Positions 35,558 through 50,628 of a DNA stretch of 64,000 bases are shown in pieces (position 1 is the stretch's first letter; every line of letters begins with the position of its first letter). The stretch comes from Escherichia coli. Its GTDB lineage: Bacteria > Pseudomonadota > Gammaproteobacteria > Enterobacterales > Enterobacteriaceae. The stretch lies in assembly GCF_050320075.1 (NCBI RefSeq), contig NZ_CP190018.1. The stretch is one strand, 5' to 3'. Below the pieces are notes generated by a model. The model worked only from the letters and a program-made list of their open reading frames with translations. It did not search any database and was not told the origin of the DNA. A program made the position numbers and the translations under genes.

Positions 35558-35842
35558 ATGATTATGAAAAATTGTCTACTGTTGGGCGCGCTTTTAATGG
35601 GCTTTACTGGTGTGGCGATGGCGCAAAGTGTCACCGTCGATGTGCCGAGTGGATACAAAGTGGTTGTGGTTCCTGATTCAGTCAGCGTTCCACAAGCGGT
35701 CAGCGTCGCGACTGTGCCGTAAACCGTCTATGTGGCTCCTGCGCCAGCTCCGGCTTACCGCCCGCATCCTTATGTTCGCCATCTTGCCAGCGTAGGTGAA
35801 GGGATGGTTATCGAACACCAGATTGACGACCATCACCATTAA
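35558..35842 (+). pseudogene. ybjH: ybjH interrupted by an in-frame TAA at 35720-35722 (codon 55 of an expected ~94-codon frame)
   Basis: ATG 35558 opens a signal-peptide ORF (MIMKNCLLLGALLMGFTGVAMA...) that stops after 54 codons; the same frame continues for 39 more codons (TVYVAPAPAPAYRPHPYVRHLASVGEGMVIEHQIDDHHH) to a stop at 35840-35842; 54+1+39 = 94, the YbjH length I remember. Confidence 0.55.
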
Positions 35843-42752: not shown

Positions 42753-44078
42753 ATGAGCAAAGTAACTCCCCAGCCGAAAATCGGCTTTGTTTCCCTTGGC
42801 TGTCCGAAAAACCTTGTCGATTCAGAGCGTATTCTCACCGAACTACGCACTGAAGGTTATGACGTGGTACCGAGCTATGACGATGCGGACATGGTGATCG
42901 TCAACACCTGCGGCTTTATTGACAGCGCGGTACAAGAATCACTGGAAGCCATTGGTGAAGCGTTGAATGAAAACGGCAAGGTAATTGTGACCGGTTGTCT
43001 GGGGGCAAAAGAAGATCAGATCCTCGAAGTCCACCCGAAAGTGCTGGAAATCACCGGGCCTCATAGCTATGAGCAGGTTCTGGAGCACGTTCATCACTAC
43101 GTGCCAAAACCGAAACACAACCCATTCCTGAGCCTGGTGCCAGAACAAGGCGTGAAACTGACGCCGCGTCATTATGCCTATCTGAAAATTTCTGAAGGCT
43201 GTAATCACCGCTGCACCTTCTGCATTATTCCGTCTATGCGCGGCGACCTGGTGAGCCGTCCGATTGGCGAAGTGTTAAGTGAAGCGAAACGTCTGGTAGA
43301 TGCGGGCGTTAAAGAGATTCTGGTGATCTCGCAGGATACTTCCGCCTATGGCGTCGATGTTAAACATCGTACTGGCTTCCACAACGGCGAGCCGGTAAAA
43401 ACCAGCATGGTCAGCCTGTGCGAACAGTTATCGAAACTGGGGATCTGGACACGTCTGCACTACGTTTACCCTTATCCGCATGTGGACGACGTCATCCCAC
43501 TGATGGCAGAGGGCAAAATCCTGCCCTATCTGGACATTCCGTTGCAGCACGCCAGCCCGCGCATTCTCAAACTGATGAAACGTCCGGGTTCTGTAGATCG
43601 CCAACTGGCGCGCATCAAACAGTGGCGCAAAATCTGCCCGGAACTGACCCTACGCTCAACCTTTATTGTTGGCTTCCCTGGCGAGACGGAAGAAGATTTC
43701 CAGATGCTACTCGACTTCCTGAAAGAAGCACGTCTGGATCGCGTTGGCTGCTTTAAATACAGCCCGGTTGAAGGTGCAGACGCCAATGCCCTGCCTGACC
43801 AGGTTCCGGAAGAAGTGAAAGAAGAACGCTGGAACCGTTTCATGCAGCTGCAGCAGCAGATTTCCGCCGAGCGCCTGCAAGAGAAAGTGGGCCGTGAAAT
43901 TCTGGTGATTATCGACGAAGTGGACGAAGAAGGCGCGATTGGTCGCAGCATGGCAGATGCACCGGAAATCGACGGCGCGGTTTATCTCAATGGTGAAACC
44001 AACGTTAAGCCGGGTGATATCCTGCGTGTGAAAGTCGAGCACGCCGATGAGTACGATTTGTGGGGTAGCCGGGTTTAA
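42753..44078 (+). CDS. rimO: Ribosomal protein S12 methylthiotransferase RimO (radical SAM, MTTase family)
   Basis: 441-aa ORF; N-terminal MTTase Cys triad (SLGCPKN...C...C), radical-[11 protein letters not shown] motif, C-terminal TRAM domain. Confidence 0.95.
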
Positions 44079-44262
44079 TTAATCTTAAGGCAGATCTAAC
44101 AAGGATATTGTTCTTCGATCTGCCTCTGCTACCCTTCCCGATGTCCTACCCTTACGCACAAAATCCCCTGACGCATAAATCGAGAAAAATGAATCGTACT
44201 CGAGGCAACTCTCACTTTTTCACACCAAATTAAAGTTTTGATCGCAATTACTTGAAATAAGC

Positions 44263-44288
44263 GTAATGGTTACTATAGTAAACATTAC
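44263..44288 (+). promoter_or_regulatory. Near-perfect 26-bp palindrome, candidate operator/promoter of the toxin-antitoxin cassette
   Basis: GTAATGgTTACTATAGTAAaCATTAC (perfect 12-bp core TTACTATAGTAA) centred ~28 bp upstream of the toxin ATG; TATAGT could also be a -10 box. Confidence 0.5.
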
Positions 44289-44303
44289 CACAAGGATGGA
44301 TGT

Positions 44304-44690
44304 ATGGGTGTGTATAAGGCAAGACGATTCAGCCAAAGCACGAAAAAACTTGGTATTCACGATAAAGTTCTCATGGCTGCCGCTGAAGAAGTGATGCAGG
44401 GCATATGGGAGGCTGATTTAGGTAGCGGTGTCATCAAAAAACGTTTACCCCTCCAACAAGGAAAGAGTGGTGGAGCCAGAACAATTATCTTTTTTAAATC
44501 AGCAAATCATGTGTTTTTTTATGATGGTTGGTCCAAGAGTGGTCTAAGCAGTAAAGGAACCAAAGAAATCGAAGATGATGAACTGGCGGCCTACAAAAAA
44601 ATGGCAAATGCATTTCTGGCCTTTAGCAATAAGCAAATAGAGGATTTGATCGAAACTGGCTTTTTGATTGAGGTGAAAAATGAGCGATAA
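44304..44690 (+). CDS. Putative type II toxin, RelE/HigB-like (DUF1044-type)
   Basis: 128-aa ORF with AAGGA RBS; motif GKSGGARTIIFF resembles the KGKSGG(Y/V)R(V/I)IY core of RelE/HigB-family toxins; 11-bp overlap with a downstream HTH gene. Confidence 0.6.
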   Translation: MGVYKARRFSQSTKKLGIHDKVLMAAAEEVMQGIWEADLGSGVIKKRLPLQQGKSGGARTIIFFKSANHVFFYDGWSKSGLSSKGTKEIEDDELAAYKKMANAFLAFSNKQIEDLIETGFLIEVKNER

Positions 44691-45009
44691 ATTACAAATG
44701 ATGCTGGAAGATGCAAAGGAACTGAATGCACTGGGCCTGATGTCTGATAGTGAAGTTGATGCCATTGCCGTCATGGTCAAAGCTCGTGAAGTCAGCGCCC
44801 GTATAGCCAAAGTCAAATCAATGACGGGTGAAGAGATCAAAGCCATCCGCACCCGATACGGCATGTCACAATCCGTGCTGGCACATACAATGGGAATGTC
44901 AAAAGAAAGTGTCTCGAAATGGGAACGAAATGAAATAAAACCGAGCGGCCCGGCACTACGTATTTTGAATACATTGGCAATAAAAGGGCCGGAAGTTTTT
45001 GCAAAGTAA
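44680..45009 (+). CDS. Putative antitoxin, XRE-family HTH protein (YiaG/COG2944-like)
   Basis: 109-aa ORF; C-terminal HTH (IRTRYGMSQSVLAHTMGMSKESVSKWERNEIKPSGPALRIL) resembling YiaG-type regulators; GAGGTG RBS inside the toxin 3' end. Confidence 0.6.
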   Translation: MSDKLQMMLEDAKELNALGLMSDSEVDAIAVMVKAREVSARIAKVKSMTGEEIKAIRTRYGMSQSVLAHTMGMSKESVSKWERNEIKPSGPALRILNTLAIKGPEVFAK

Positions 45010-45038
45010 AATGTTTGCAAATGATTTACCACATTCAT

Positions 45039-45064
45039 TAGTACCCCTTGATTAAGGGGTACTA
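45039..45064. terminator. Hairpin between the TA cassette and the dgcI 3' end
   Basis: TAGTACCCCTT-GATT-AAGGGGTACTA perfect 11-bp stem; no T-run. Confidence 0.35.
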
Positions 45065-45078
45065 ACACTATTCTAATT

Positions 45079-46407
45079 CTACTGCCAGCTAATCTGTGCC
45101 CTGCCGTTTTTCTTACTCTTATACAGTCGCTCATCCGCCAGCATTTTCAAGCGTTCAACGGTAGGACATTCATTTGAATGCGCTACACCGATACTGGTGC
45201 TTAAATTAATGCTTCCCACCTGGAAATGAACAATTTCTTTTAGAATCGATAGCAACTCTTCCAGCGTTCCACCCGTATAAATCACCGCAAATTCGTCACC
45301 GCCGAAGCGGTAGACTTTACCTTTATCTACCGGGATCTGTGATTTAAGGATTTTCACCACTTTCATCAACACTTCATCGCCCAGCAAATGACCGAAAGTG
45401 TCGTTGATGTTTTTGAATTTATCGACGTCAAACAGGCACAAATATCCGCCTTTTTCCGGCAGGGCTTTTAAATCTTCGTCAAAGGATTTTCTGCCCATCG
45501 CTTTGGTCAGGTCATCCAGGAACGCCGAGTTATACAGACTGTAGAGTTTTTTGACATCGGCAGCTGAAAAGAAAAGCCCGCCATCCAGTACGCGTTCAAA
45601 ATGGTTATTAATGATGGCTTCTTTCTCCACAATACCACGATTAATCACTCTGCGTACCAGATAGAGGCAACTGACACCCGATATCACTGCCACCAATGCG
45701 GCAAAGAAAATAATCAATGTACAGACCCGCAAATAAACATCTTTTTTATACGCAAATACGTACAATCCGGTCGGCAAATAGGCGAAGTGCTCCATCGCTT
45801 CCGAAACGGTGAAGATGGCGTTTTTAGCATTAAATTCATCACCGGTCACCGGTTTACCGTTCTTAAACAGAGAGAACATCAGGTTCTCGCTATCCATCGC
45901 CAGCGATTTTGACAGTAAAGAAAAACGCTCCAGACCAAGCAAAAATATCAGACTACGATTATGAGTTACCGGATAGAGGTAATAGACGAAGGTTTTACCG
46001 TCAAAAGAGATAAACCCTGTATTTTTGACATGTCGATACTTCACAATCTGCATAATATCTGCACAATAATTTTTCTCGAACTCCTTTACCTGAATACATT
46101 CGTCACTGGAAATCAGATAAGGACCGACATCGTACAAATAAGAGGGTGAAACCGAGTCGGCGTAAGCTGTGCGCAAGCCAACCAACAGCTGTTCCTCCGT
46201 GGGATTTAGCGTGTTGATAAGATCAATTGCCACGCTACGCCGATATTCAGCAATATTTGCCACCGCAAAAGCAGTATCAATAACGGACTGTTTCAGGCCA
46301 TACACCCGTTCCTTTACCATTTGAGTGTAGATCCCGCAGGCAACTGCTGAAATCATGATAAAAATCAGCAGACTGACTGTAAGTACGAACTTATTGATTC
46401 TGGACAT
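45079..46407 (-). CDS. dgcI: Diguanylate cyclase DgcI (YliF), membrane-anchored GGDEF protein
   Basis: 442-aa ORF; N-terminal TM segment, C-terminal GGDEF domain (RFGGDEF). Confidence 0.92.
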
Positions 46408-48479
46408 ACGTAAACTACTCTTTTACTAATTTTCCACTTTTATCCCAGGCGGAGAACGGCATGGGTTTCTGGTACAGATACCCCTGAGCCTGAACACATC
46501 CTAATTTGATTAATTCGCGCGCAACGTCTTCGCTCTCTACGCCTTCCGCAATCACCGGGATCCGGTTATAGCGTGCCAGATCGAAAATAATGCGCACAAT
46601 TTTTCCCGCAGTACCGAAAATATCGCCGGTAAATTGTGAGTCCACCTTTATGCTATCTGGATTAATTTCATAAAAACGTTTCAGGTTTGACAAACCGGTG
46701 CCAAAGTCATCAATCGATATCCGTACCCCTTGTTTACGCAGTTGTTCAATATTGAGATAAAAATGTTCATTAATTCGCTCGATCACGGTTTCAGTGATCT
46801 CAACACATAGGCTGTTCGCCTTCAGGCCATTTTCTTTCATGATGGTGGTAAAACGCTCATGAAAGTGTGGTTCGTTTAACTGCCAGGGCGAAACATTAAT
46901 ATGCAGTAAGAAATCATCCTTCAGCGACGCACGCTGACTAAAATGTCTGAATTCACCCATTGCCGTTTTAATAATCTGATAACCCAGCTCATTGATAAAC
47001 CCGATATCTTCAGCAATGGTAATGAACTTTAGCGGTGAAATGATCCCCCGCTCCGCAGACACCCAACGGCACAACGCCTCCGCGCCCAGAATGGCGCGGG
47101 TGTTAATATCAACGATCGGTTGATAGACGAGGAATAGTTCGCCAATTTCCATTGCATGGCGAATATTACGCGCAATCCAGATATTCTCTTCTATTTCGTT
47201 GAGTTTCGCGTCATCACAGAAAATAAACTCTGAGAACATATGGTCACGGATACTGGAAATCGCCAGTTTCAGTTTTTCTGCGTAACTCCAGGCGTTTTCT
47301 CCCTGCAAAGGTTCACAAATGGCAGACTTATGGATGCGCAGATTGCGGTAGCCAAAGCTGCTGTCAAAATCGTTTATCATCGCTATTTTACGGGTAAATG
47401 TCTGTACATTTTCCCGGCACAGAAGTAAATAGAGATCGGCATTGAATGTCACGATATCGCAGCATTGCGCATATTTCTCGGCAATTCGCTGACACAATTT
47501 CCTGACGATTTTATTGCGTTCATCAACACCAAACACCGCTTCCACGGCTTCCAGACCACACAGTTTGATGATCCCCACAGCCAGATACTGATTATTGTTG
47601 GACTCAATAATCGCCATATTTTTAATAAAACCGCTTTCCTGATCGTAAGAGATCAGTGAGAGCAATTTATTTGACCGTTCAATTTCGGCATCTTTCATTT
47701 CCGCGATCGAATTTTTGATGCTGATAATCTCTTTCGCATCGCCTTCGCGAATTTTCAGAGCCTCGATCTGATCCGTTGAGTCGGGCAAAAACGCCAGCGT
47801 ATTAACCAGCTCGGTCATTTCAGAAAATTGCCGACGGAACACACGAGTGGTCATTAAATAAACCACCAGCAATACGATAATAATGAAAGCAAACGGCAGA
47901 TAAAAAAGTTTATCTGATGCGTTCAATAAATTACCGCCAGGATAATAAAAATAGATTTCGAATAATGCGTTGTTTGGCACCGCTGATGTTTTTTCGATAT
48001 ATTCAGTATCGACAGAATCAATAATATTATAATTACCTTCGCTATTATAAATAATCAGTTTTTCACGCGCGAGTTGATTCTTGGCAATGATCTCATGGCC
48101 TTGTTTCAAAAATAGAACTTCATCATTAGCGCTGATTTGATCAAGATACTCGTTCAGATATCGCCAGTTTAAATCGACATGTATTTTATCCACCGCTAAC
48201 AAATCGTGATCTTTGCCGTTGATGCGTAGCGTAAAAGAGATACATTTTTTACCCGGACGATCAAAGCAATTGTAGGCCGGATTCCAGCTGTTGTTAGAGT
48301 CATCTGAAGCCACCGACCATGGTCGTTTCGATGGATTAAAATCGGCAAAAATAACCCGCCCTGACTCGTCGACAAGCGGTCCATTTACTTCTTCCTGATG
48401 ATAAACAACGATTTTATCATTCGCCCTCCGCGAAAAGAGATAATATTTATTATCATCAAGTACCAGTCCCACCGAGTCT

Positions 48480-48487
48480 AAAAATGG
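48480..48487. repeat. IS1 target-site duplication, left copy (AAAAATGG)
   Basis: Identical 8 bp occur immediately outside both IS1 ends (48480-48487 and 49256-49263). Confidence 0.8.
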
Positions 48488-48502
48488 GGTAATGACTCCA
48501 AC

Positions 48503-49006
48503 TTATTGATAGTGTTTTATGTTCAGATAATGCCCGATGACTTTGTCATGCAGCTCCACCGATTTTGAGAACGACAGCGACTTCCGTCCCAGCCGTGCCA
48601 GGTGCTGCCTCAGATTCAGGTTATGCCGCTCAATTCGCTGCGTATATCGCTTGCTGATTACGTGCAGCTTTCCCTTCAGGCGGGATTCATACAGCGGCCA
48701 GCCATCCGTCATCCATATCACCACGTCAAAGGGTGACAGCAGGCTCATAAGACGCCCCAGCGTCGCCATAGTGCGTTCACCGAATACGTGCGCAACAACC
48801 GTCTTCCGGAGCCTGTCATACGCGTAAAACAGCCAGCGCTGGCGCGATTTAGCCCCGACGTATCCCCACTGTTCGTCCATTTCCGCGCAGACGATGACGT
48901 CACTGCCCGGCTGTATGCGCGAGGTTACCGACTGCGGCCTGAGTTTTTTAAATGGCGGAAAATCGTGTTGAGGCCAACGCCCATAATGCGGGCAGTTGCC
49001 CGGCAT
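48503..49006 (-). CDS. insB: IS1 InsB (C-terminal catalytic part of InsAB' transposase, made by -1 frameshift)
   Basis: 167-aa ORF overlapping insA in the -1 frame; sequence matches IS1 InsB. Confidence 0.93.
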
Positions 49007-49200
49007 CCAACGCCATTCATGGCCATATCAATGATTTTCTGGTGCGTACCGGGTTGAGAAGCGGTGTAAGTGAACTGCAGTTGCCATGTTTTACGGCAGT
49101 GAGAGCAGAGATAGCGCTGATGTCCGGCGGTGCTTTTGCCGTTACGCACCACCCCGTCAGTAGCTGAACAGGAGGGACAGCTGATAGAAACAGAAGCCAC
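48925..49200 (-). CDS. insA: IS1 InsA (transposition repressor / N-terminal part of InsAB' transposase)
   Basis: 91-aa [45 protein letters not shown]... (zinc finger plus HTH). Confidence 0.95.
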
Positions 49201-49255
49201 TGGAGCACCTCAAAAACACCATCATACACTAAATCAGTAAGTTGGCAGCATCACC

Positions 49256-49263
49256 AAAAATGG
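49256..49263. repeat. IS1 target-site duplication, right copy (AAAAATGG)
   Basis: See left copy. Confidence 0.8.
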
Positions 49264-49716
49264 CATCATTTCCATTTTAAGGATCACAGCGCGTTGAATC
49301 TCCTCTGTATTTTTTAATAAATACAGTGAGTCCTTTAATGTCAGGGCCGAACGTTCAATATCTTTAAAGAAATAGCCAACGTTTTTCTGAATAAGTTCAA
49401 AGCGGCTATCGGCACGTTTTACCGCGCGTTCCGAAACCAGTTGATAGTTAATGATGAAAAAAAGGCCAATAAATGACAGTGCTGCCAATAAAAATAAAAT
49501 TATCAGCCTTATCTTTATCTTTTCGTATAAACTCAGCATGTTAATACATTTAACAAAATAACTGTCTGAACGCTGTGCCGCTGCAAAAACAGTCCCTTGC
49601 TGCGGCTTTTTAACCAAATTACCCGATTCTACAAAATCAGCAGAAAGTTACAACACTTGCTTAGGGCAATAATTTCCTGTGAGGTGATTACCCTTTCAAG
49701 CAATATTCAAACGTAA

Positions 49717-50628
49717 CTATCCTTTAATTTTCGGATCCAGCGCATCGCGTAAACCATCACCCAACAAATTGAACGCCAGTACAGTCAGAAAAATAGCCAG
49801 GGCCGGAAAAATAGCGACATGCGGCGCGATAACCATATCCGCTCGGGCCTCATTGAGCATTGCACCCCACTCTGGTGTCGGCGGCTGCGCACCGAGGCCG
49901 AGAAATGACAGGCTGGCGGCAGAGATAATCGAGGTACCGATGCGCATGGTGAAAAACACCACGATAGAAGAGACAGTCCCGGGCAAGATATGGCGCAATA
50001 AGATGGTCATGTCGCTGGCACCAATACTGCGCGCCGATTCAATAAAAGTTTGCTGTTTCAACACCAGCGTGTTGCCACGCACCAGACGGGCAAAAGCCGG
50101 AATGGAAAAAATGGCGACTGCAATAATCACGTTAGCAATGCCGCTTCCCAACACCGCAACAACAGCGATCGCCAGTAAAATACCCGGGAAGGCAAACAGC
50201 ACATCGCAAATGCGCATGATCAGCCGATCCCACCAGCCTTCATAATATCCAGCCAGCAAACCCAGCAACGTCCCGATCGCCGCACCGATAAACACGGCAA
50301 ACACGCCCGCCGCCAGCGAGATTTGCGCACCAACCAGGACACGGCTGAAAATGTCACGCCCCAGTGAATCGACGCCAAACCAGTGCTGCAAAGAAGGTCC
50401 GTTATTCAGATTGTCATAATCAAAATAATTTTCGGCGTCATAGGGAACGATCCAACGTGCAAAAATGGCCACCACAATCAATAAAATAACGAATAATGCG
50501 GCGGTCATCGCCATATGCTGACGGCGAAATCGTCGCCAGAATTCATGCCACGGTGTACGTACCTGGTCAGGTTTGACCAGTGGCATGGCGTTTAACACCG
50601 CCTGACGTCGCCAGTTAAATAGTCGCAT
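49717..50628 (-). CDS. gsiD: Glutathione ABC transporter permease GsiD
   Basis: 303-aa membrane ORF, last gene of the iaaA-gsiABCD operon. Confidence 0.92.

Follow-up and report, generated by a model that had tools for sequence, protein, structure and literature searches.

The window analysed here is a 64-kb stretch of Escherichia coli DNA that retains the gene order gsiD-pdeI-dgcI-rimO of K-12, and in which pdeI (yliE; 46415-49539, minus strand) is interrupted after codon 95 by a complete IS1 element. The two share the same orientation, both being encoded on the minus strand, as had been noted in a preliminary description of this DNA. The adjacent dgcI gene, described there as intact, does have an intact open reading frame, with a GGDEF motif. 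Compared with K-12, the DNA flanking the insertion is about 98.7% identical, and the window differs from K-12 in having a toxin-antitoxin pair between dgcI and rimO. No Rfam match to an RNA element was found in the region 44000-50000. The features of the locus are collected in Table 1.

Table 1. Features of the IS1-interrupted pdeI-dgcI locus. Positions are those of the window.
Feature	Position	Strand	Remarks
dgcI	45079-46407	minus	442 aa; GGDEF motif at residue 369; starts 7 nt after the pdeI stop
pdeI 3' fragment	46415-48487	minus	native codons 93-782; first candidate start GTG at 48472
Target-site duplication, copy 1	48480-48487		AAAAATGG; in gene direction CCATTTTT
IS1, complete	48488-49255	minus	768 bp; IRL end at 49255, IRR end at 48488
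IRR of IS1	48488-48510	minus	23 nt; 18/23 complementary to IRL
insAB' transposase	48503-49200	minus	by -1 frameshift; ORFs and PGAP
insA	48925-49200	minus	ORFs and PGAP
A6C programmed -1 frameshift motif	48943-48952	minus	TTTAAAAAAC; position 304 of the IS1 sense strand
IRL of IS1	49233-49255	minus	23 nt; GGTGATGCTGCCAACTTACTGAT
pdeI 5' fragment (101-aa hybrid ORF)	49234-49539	minus	95 native codons, 6 IS1 codons (VMLPTY), stop
Target-site duplication, copy 2	49256-49263		AAAAATGG
Promoter-like site upstream of the pdeI ATG	49626-49653	minus	TTGTAA, 16-nt spacer, TAGAAT; consensus match only

The inserted element

By every defining feature the inserted element is IS1. Its terminal inverted repeats are placed exactly at both ends, and its sense strand, which corresponds to the minus strand of the window, runs from the left end GGTGATGCTGCC... 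at 49255 to the right end ...GGAGTCATTACC at 48488. The window contains the IRL sequence a single time, shuffled sequence gives no match to it, and a search with it revealed no second IS1 copy within the 64 kb. The frames of insA (91 aa) and insB' are both open. The PGAP annotation of a genome that is identical here has an intact transposase, named [quoted passage not shown], at the position of the insAB' frame, and the transposase encoded on an identical contig contains the Pfam domains Zn_ribbon_InsA, HTH_Tnp_IS1 and DDE_Tnp_IS1. The duplicated octamer abuts both ends of the element and does not extend to 9 bp; target duplications of either 8 or 9 bp are normal for IS1 (PMC12428005), and relatives with an empty site exist (see below). 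The preliminary description had reported the 768-bp element with its inverted repeats, insA, insB and A6C motif, as well as the 8-bp direct repeat, at these same positions, and re-inspection for missing inverted repeats or a missing target duplication found both in place. In terms of structure, the element does not differ from the IS1A/IS1B-type IS1 of E. coli K-12 and Shigella, with which it shares its length of 768 bp, inverted repeats of about 23 bp, the insA/insB' arrangement with the A6C motif, and the 8-bp duplication. The insertion site alone is different, K-12 having no IS1 in pdeI.

The interrupted gene and what the cut leaves

Removing IS1 together with one copy of the repeat in silico restores an uninterrupted pdeI reading frame of 782 aa, which, with the empty site found in relatives, bears out the earlier proposal of a genuine transposition into pdeI. 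In the reconstructed protein, Pfam detects a CHASE9 domain at residues 35-150 (E = 5e-62) and an EAL domain at residues 532-767 (E = 2e-69), and hydropathy places transmembrane (TM) helices at about residues 10-34 (TM1) and 287-309 (TM2). The region from TM2 to the EAL domain aligns with the GGDEF-EAL part of GepA-type phosphodiesterases, and the region ahead of EAL has been described as a divergent GGDEF domain (PMC11651652). Based on its length, its domains (CHASE9 between the two TM helices and a C-terminal EAL) and its position between gsiD and dgcI, the target is the orthologue of K-12 PdeI (YliE), with which the reconstructed protein shares the 782 aa and the CHASE9 plus EAL architecture. 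Unlike the K-12 gene, however, it is no longer an intact gene for the full-length protein, being split by IS1 after codon 95, with a 3' part that has neither an ATG nor a Shine-Dalgarno sequence.

The insertion point, at residue 95, lies inside the periplasmic CHASE9 sensor domain. The 5' fragment consists of TM1 and the first ~60 CHASE9 residues, and is annotated by PGAP as an incomplete CHASE9 pseudogene; the 3' fragment comprises the remainder of CHASE9 and the periplasmic region, TM2, the divergent GGDEF-like region and the EAL domain. The division into about 95 and about 685 codons that had been proposed agrees with the 95 native codons and the 685-codon ORF counted from the GTG. A "truncated soluble protein", as the 3' product had been called, does not fit this fragment, which keeps TM2 and two thirds of the periplasmic region.

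Reading in frame from the end of IS1, the insB stop codon TAA is followed by VGVITPFLDS and then by a GTG (codon 98). No Shine-Dalgarno sequence precedes GTG-98, and the "first ATG just after the IS1 end" that had been assumed does not exist: there is no in-frame ATG before codon 304, which is the next in-frame Met. From the GTG onwards this clone has all 685 codons open. For the 3' remnant PGAP gives an intact CDS of 692 aa that starts from an ATT at 48493, 6 nt inside IS1, where a GGAG is located only 2 nt upstream. A consensus scan of the IRR end showed no outward or hybrid promoter-like site.

According to the same type of scan, the site upstream of the pdeI ATG is the only visible promoter candidate for pdeI-dgcI, and no comparable promoter-like site was seen between IS1 and the start of dgcI, including the interior of pdeI and the pdeI-dgcI gap. 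IS1 is located between this sole visible promoter candidate and dgcI. The two genes are co-induced at 37 °C in strain CFT073 (PMC12890032).

Distribution of the allele

A probe spanning the IRR junction gave a one-piece match of 100% in 2 of 5,426 complete E. coli genomes, those of strains YZLc1-3 (chicken faeces, China) and Ec-U3 (human urine, Burkina Faso). Both have the same gene order and PGAP annotation as the window, and the IS1 at the site is 100% identical. Over 50 kb, the window differs from these two genomes at 4 and 6 positions, respectively. At three of the differing positions both carriers depart from the window, and the window therefore represents a third member of the same clone. 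The exact 101-aa hybrid ORF, which is specific to the insertion, was found in 114 public contigs (NCBI, ENA, Logan), most of them short-read contigs that end inside IS1.

Of the 5,426 genomes, 5,373 contain the reconstructed empty site as one unbroken match, including that of an MG1655 derivative in which site and gene are intact; K-12 thus has no IS1 here, as the preliminary description had supposed. An empty site that is 100% identical is found in the sister strain CFSAN061763, which is 99.97% identical over 34 kb. Taken together, the allele goes back to a single transposition event and has been inherited clonally. It is already present in RefSeq/GenBank, annotated as a CHASE9 pseudogene fragment, IS1 and a 3' CDS. 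Our searches found no literature on YZLc1-3, Ec-U3 or CFSAN061763, and no paper discussing this pdeI::IS1 allele.

Repeated IS1 insertions in pdeI-dgcI

IS1 has entered this operon in other strains as well. Insertion points were mapped at pdeI nt 83, 142 (twice), 165, 268, 284 (the present clone) and 298, and one IS1-associated deletion was also found in pdeI. The IS1 knockouts in ES3, W409, Ecol_AZ146, EC-16-35, PK8566, BY63, CFSAN061763 and others involve the same element family and the same operon as the present one; several share its orientation, and those of ES3 and W409 lie within 16 bp of the present site. They differ from it in position, in their target duplications, which are mostly 9 bp, and in the IS1 variant, the elements being 93-99% identical (99% and 93% to the IS1 of the window for the two at nt 142). 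These differences in position, duplication and IS1 variant imply that the insertions are independent events. In CFSAN061763, the closest relative with an empty site, pdeI is intact and it is dgcI that contains an IS1.

The frequency of such insertions was compared with that in nearby dispensable genes, which served as controls. The probe for the 5' end of pdeI (GC 0.39) identified 10 genomes with IS1 in the orientation of pdeI and 4-5 with IS1 in the opposite orientation; the mid-pdeI probe (GC 0.38) identified 12, of which 9 were new, and that for the 5' half of dgcI (GC 0.43) identified 10. Among the controls, no genome with IS1 was found with the probes for poxB (GC 0.53), yliI (GC 0.53) and artJ (GC 0.47), and 3 genomes, corresponding to 2 sites, were found with that for ybjI (GC 0.45). 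The totals, in which distinct sites were judged from match spans, are about 34 genomes and at least 26 distinct sites for the four operon probes versus 3 genomes and 2 sites for the four control probes. Assuming equal rates, the calculated probability of so uneven a split between sites is about 1.5e-6. By this comparison pdeI-dgcI has been struck by IS1 about ten times as often as neighbouring genes, the controls being only partly matched in composition since no other core gene in the window is as AT-rich as pdeI. The GC contents of pdeI and dgcI are 0.42 and 0.43, against 0.51 for the window, which makes them its most AT-rich core genes.

Two simple patterns were considered and rejected. A fixed orientation of IS1 along pdeI, which would have hinted at selected read-out, is contradicted by the 4-5 genomes found with the opposite-orientation probe. 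A hot spot at one single site does not agree with the spread of the insertion points, which are found throughout pdeI nt 83-298 and also in mid-pdeI and in dgcI.

Discussion

We propose that the ancestor of one E. coli clone acquired an active-type IS1 at codons 93-95 of pdeI, in a transposition that duplicated 8 bp of the target and converted the gene into a split pseudogene, since inherited clonally, with the likely loss of the whole PdeI-DgcI module; we estimate the probability of this reading to be about 85%. The 5' piece would encode TM1, 60 CHASE9 residues and six IS1-derived residues. Because the 3' piece is devoid of an ATG, a ribosome-binding site and the first membrane anchor, it is expected to yield little or no functional protein, and the most probable outcome, judged from the sequence, is a null allele of pdeI with the corresponding phenotype. 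The consequences may extend to dgcI. IS1 insertions are classically polar. Since insB' would be translated only after a rare frameshift, IS1 would contain a long, mostly untranslated stretch, and transcription into dgcI should consequently drop by polarity. The preliminary description had suggested that loss of the phosphodiesterase would leave the cyclase free to raise c-di-GMP. However, dgcI starts 7 nt downstream of pdeI in the same operon, with no promoter-like site in between; hence, its expression should fall rather than stay unchanged, and dgcI is more likely to be silenced by polarity than left unopposed. The likely net effect would be the loss of the module as a whole and not an unopposed cyclase.

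It should be noted that the 3' fragment and dgcI could still be transcribed to some extent by read-through from the pdeI promoter or an IS1 promoter; entry of upstream transcription into IS1 is documented (PMC12428005).

Copies of insertion sequences are a classic source of misassembly, and the preliminary description had named an assembly artefact among the alternatives. Apart from this general consideration nothing in the data supports a misplacement of IS1 in pdeI by the assembler, and its probability is negligible: the perfect 8-bp duplication is located directly against both IS1 ends, two further complete assemblies, which are independent and come from different continents, have the identical junction, and more than 100 short-read contigs run from pdeI into the IS1 end. 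An assembly artefact is thereby excluded. Another view, which is that of the preliminary description recast for a protein with TM2, is that the 3' fragment is expressed, by read-through or IS1-derived transcription, as an N-terminally truncated, sensorless and deregulated EAL phosphodiesterase that retains TM2. The fragment is open for 685 codons, its EAL domain scores 2e-69, the EAL, DDFGTG and EGVE motifs can be seen in its sequence, it has the same orientation as IS1, and transcription coming from upstream can run through the element (PMC12428005). Moreover, insB shares its reading frame with the fragment and terminates only five codons short of the end of IS1, which would bring terminating ribosomes close to GTG-98. 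Few ribosomes would translate insB', however, as the rare frameshift is required, GTG-98 has no Shine-Dalgarno sequence or preceding ATG, and the ATT chosen by PGAP has its GGAG just 2 nt away; there is also no outward promoter-like site at the IRR end. In any product, about 190 residues of broken periplasmic domain would precede TM2 and a signal anchor would be lacking, making misfolding or mislocalisation likely. The open state of the 685-codon ORF is uninformative about function, given the youth of the clone, whose members differ by a few SNPs per 50 kb. Equivalent 3' fragments left by older IS1 insertions in the pdeI of other strains have decayed through frameshifts or stop codons, which is the behaviour expected of a dead gene. 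We therefore regard expression of a functional fragment as highly improbable.

The excess of IS1 insertions raises a different issue, namely whether the present insertion and the others in pdeI-dgcI became fixed since losing the module is advantageous in some niche, beyond target preference and drift. The contrast between the operon and control probes would be in agreement with such selection, as would the IS1 in dgcI of the closest empty-site relative and the spread of the present clone across continents and hosts. Against this, IS1 favours AT-rich targets, and no core genes of the window are more AT-rich than pdeI and dgcI. The control probes were not composition-matched. The many positions and both orientations that are hit have the look of non-selective knockouts, and this part of pdeI has remained uninterrupted in at least 99% of the genomes. 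In addition, the loss may be neutral, given the very low expression of the genes in the laboratory (PMC5635695). AT-richness combined with dispensability probably explains the excess. We thus consider selection an unlikely driver, and regard as equally doubtful the wider reading in which repeated, independent IS1 knockouts of pdeI-dgcI across the species reflect selection against the module, with the allele described here as one globally spread example.

With respect to c-di-GMP, the direction in which PdeI acts is contested in publications. Overexpressed PdeI behaves like a phosphodiesterase, conferring resistance to phage N4 as other phosphodiesterases do (PMC7553319, PMC8669469); in contrast, another study reported that overexpression raises c-di-GMP about 11-fold, an effect that depended on residue G412 of the divergent GGDEF domain (PMC11651652). 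In K-12 kept under standard conditions, DgcI protein escapes detection (PMC5635695), and deletion of yliE in K-12 produced only a mild phenotype in mixed biofilms and no effect in mice (PMC3646849). For these reasons, neither the sign nor the size of a change in c-di-GMP can be predicted from the sequence, and we infer that any effect would be small or condition-specific.

Based on this reading, the allele makes pdeI an ordinary pseudogene by insertion, in a clone that has been widely sampled; E. coli routinely loses dispensable AT-rich genes to IS1 in this way. The allele has some use as a marker, in that it identifies a clone that has been recovered from poultry in China and from human urine in Burkina Faso. 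The PGAP call of an "intact" 692-aa CDS, starting from an ATT inside IS1, could mislead pangenome counts of c-di-GMP enzymes. Finally, the excess of IS1 in pdeI-dgcI suggests a modest question, which is whether a poorly understood module is being shed in nature.

Annotation and reading frame of the pdeI 3' remnant

The part of pdeI downstream of IS1 is annotated by PGAP as an intact CDS of 692 aa (WP_106475076.1), whose start codon, according to the same annotation, is an ATT located within the IS1 inverted repeat. In protein-based surveys, the pdeI pseudogene is masked by this intact CDS call. The pdeI 3' fragment and insB share one reading frame, and the only element separating the two is the TAA stop codon of insB itself, which is located 5 codons before the end of IS1.

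Other IS1 copies in the pdeI-dgcI operon

Strain Ecol_AZ146 and isolate 30345_1#247 both contain an IS1 at pdeI nt 142, where the insertions have a 9-bp duplication in common (GCCGCTTTG); the Ecol_AZ146 copy is 99% identical to the IS1 of the window, and that of 30345_1#247 is 93% identical. This arrangement reflects either that one site was struck twice, or that IS1 copies recombined after insertion. In BY63/BY68, the IS1 is truncated at its 5' end, with only nt 218-768 being present, and is located at pdeI nt ~518-1131 in place of ~600 bp of pdeI that are missing, a structure resembling the product of an adjacent deletion associated with IS1. In CFSAN061763, the closest relative having an empty site, pdeI is intact and dgcI carries a different IS1 (96.7% identity, 9-bp duplication).

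Accessory and damaged loci

Genes encoding a RelE/ParE-family toxin and an HTH antitoxin adjoin the pdeI-dgcI operon. Since the rimO-dgcI interval in the K-12 derivative compared with the window is only 46 bp, this pair is an accessory insertion. Elsewhere in the window, the ybjQ-ybjP interval contains a very AT-rich island of 2.6 kb (GC 0.29-0.35), which includes a truncated pentapeptide-repeat gene labeled as a pseudogene by PGAP. In addition, ybjH has an internal stop in the clone sharing the pdeI insertion, whereas CFSAN061763, the sister strain, retains an uninterrupted copy.

Coordinates of the features discussed
Feature	Window position	Strand or orientation	Location
ybjQ-ybjP island	~13939-16565
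ybjH with internal stop	35558-35842	+
Toxin and antitoxin genes	44304-45009	+	Between rimO and dgcI
IS1 of CFSAN061763 (L012 16208-16975)	Corresponds to ~45313-45321	Opposite	dgcI
Shared insB-pdeI frame	48472-48520	-
WP_106475076.1	48488-48493 (start of the CDS, within IS1)		pdeI 3' remnant
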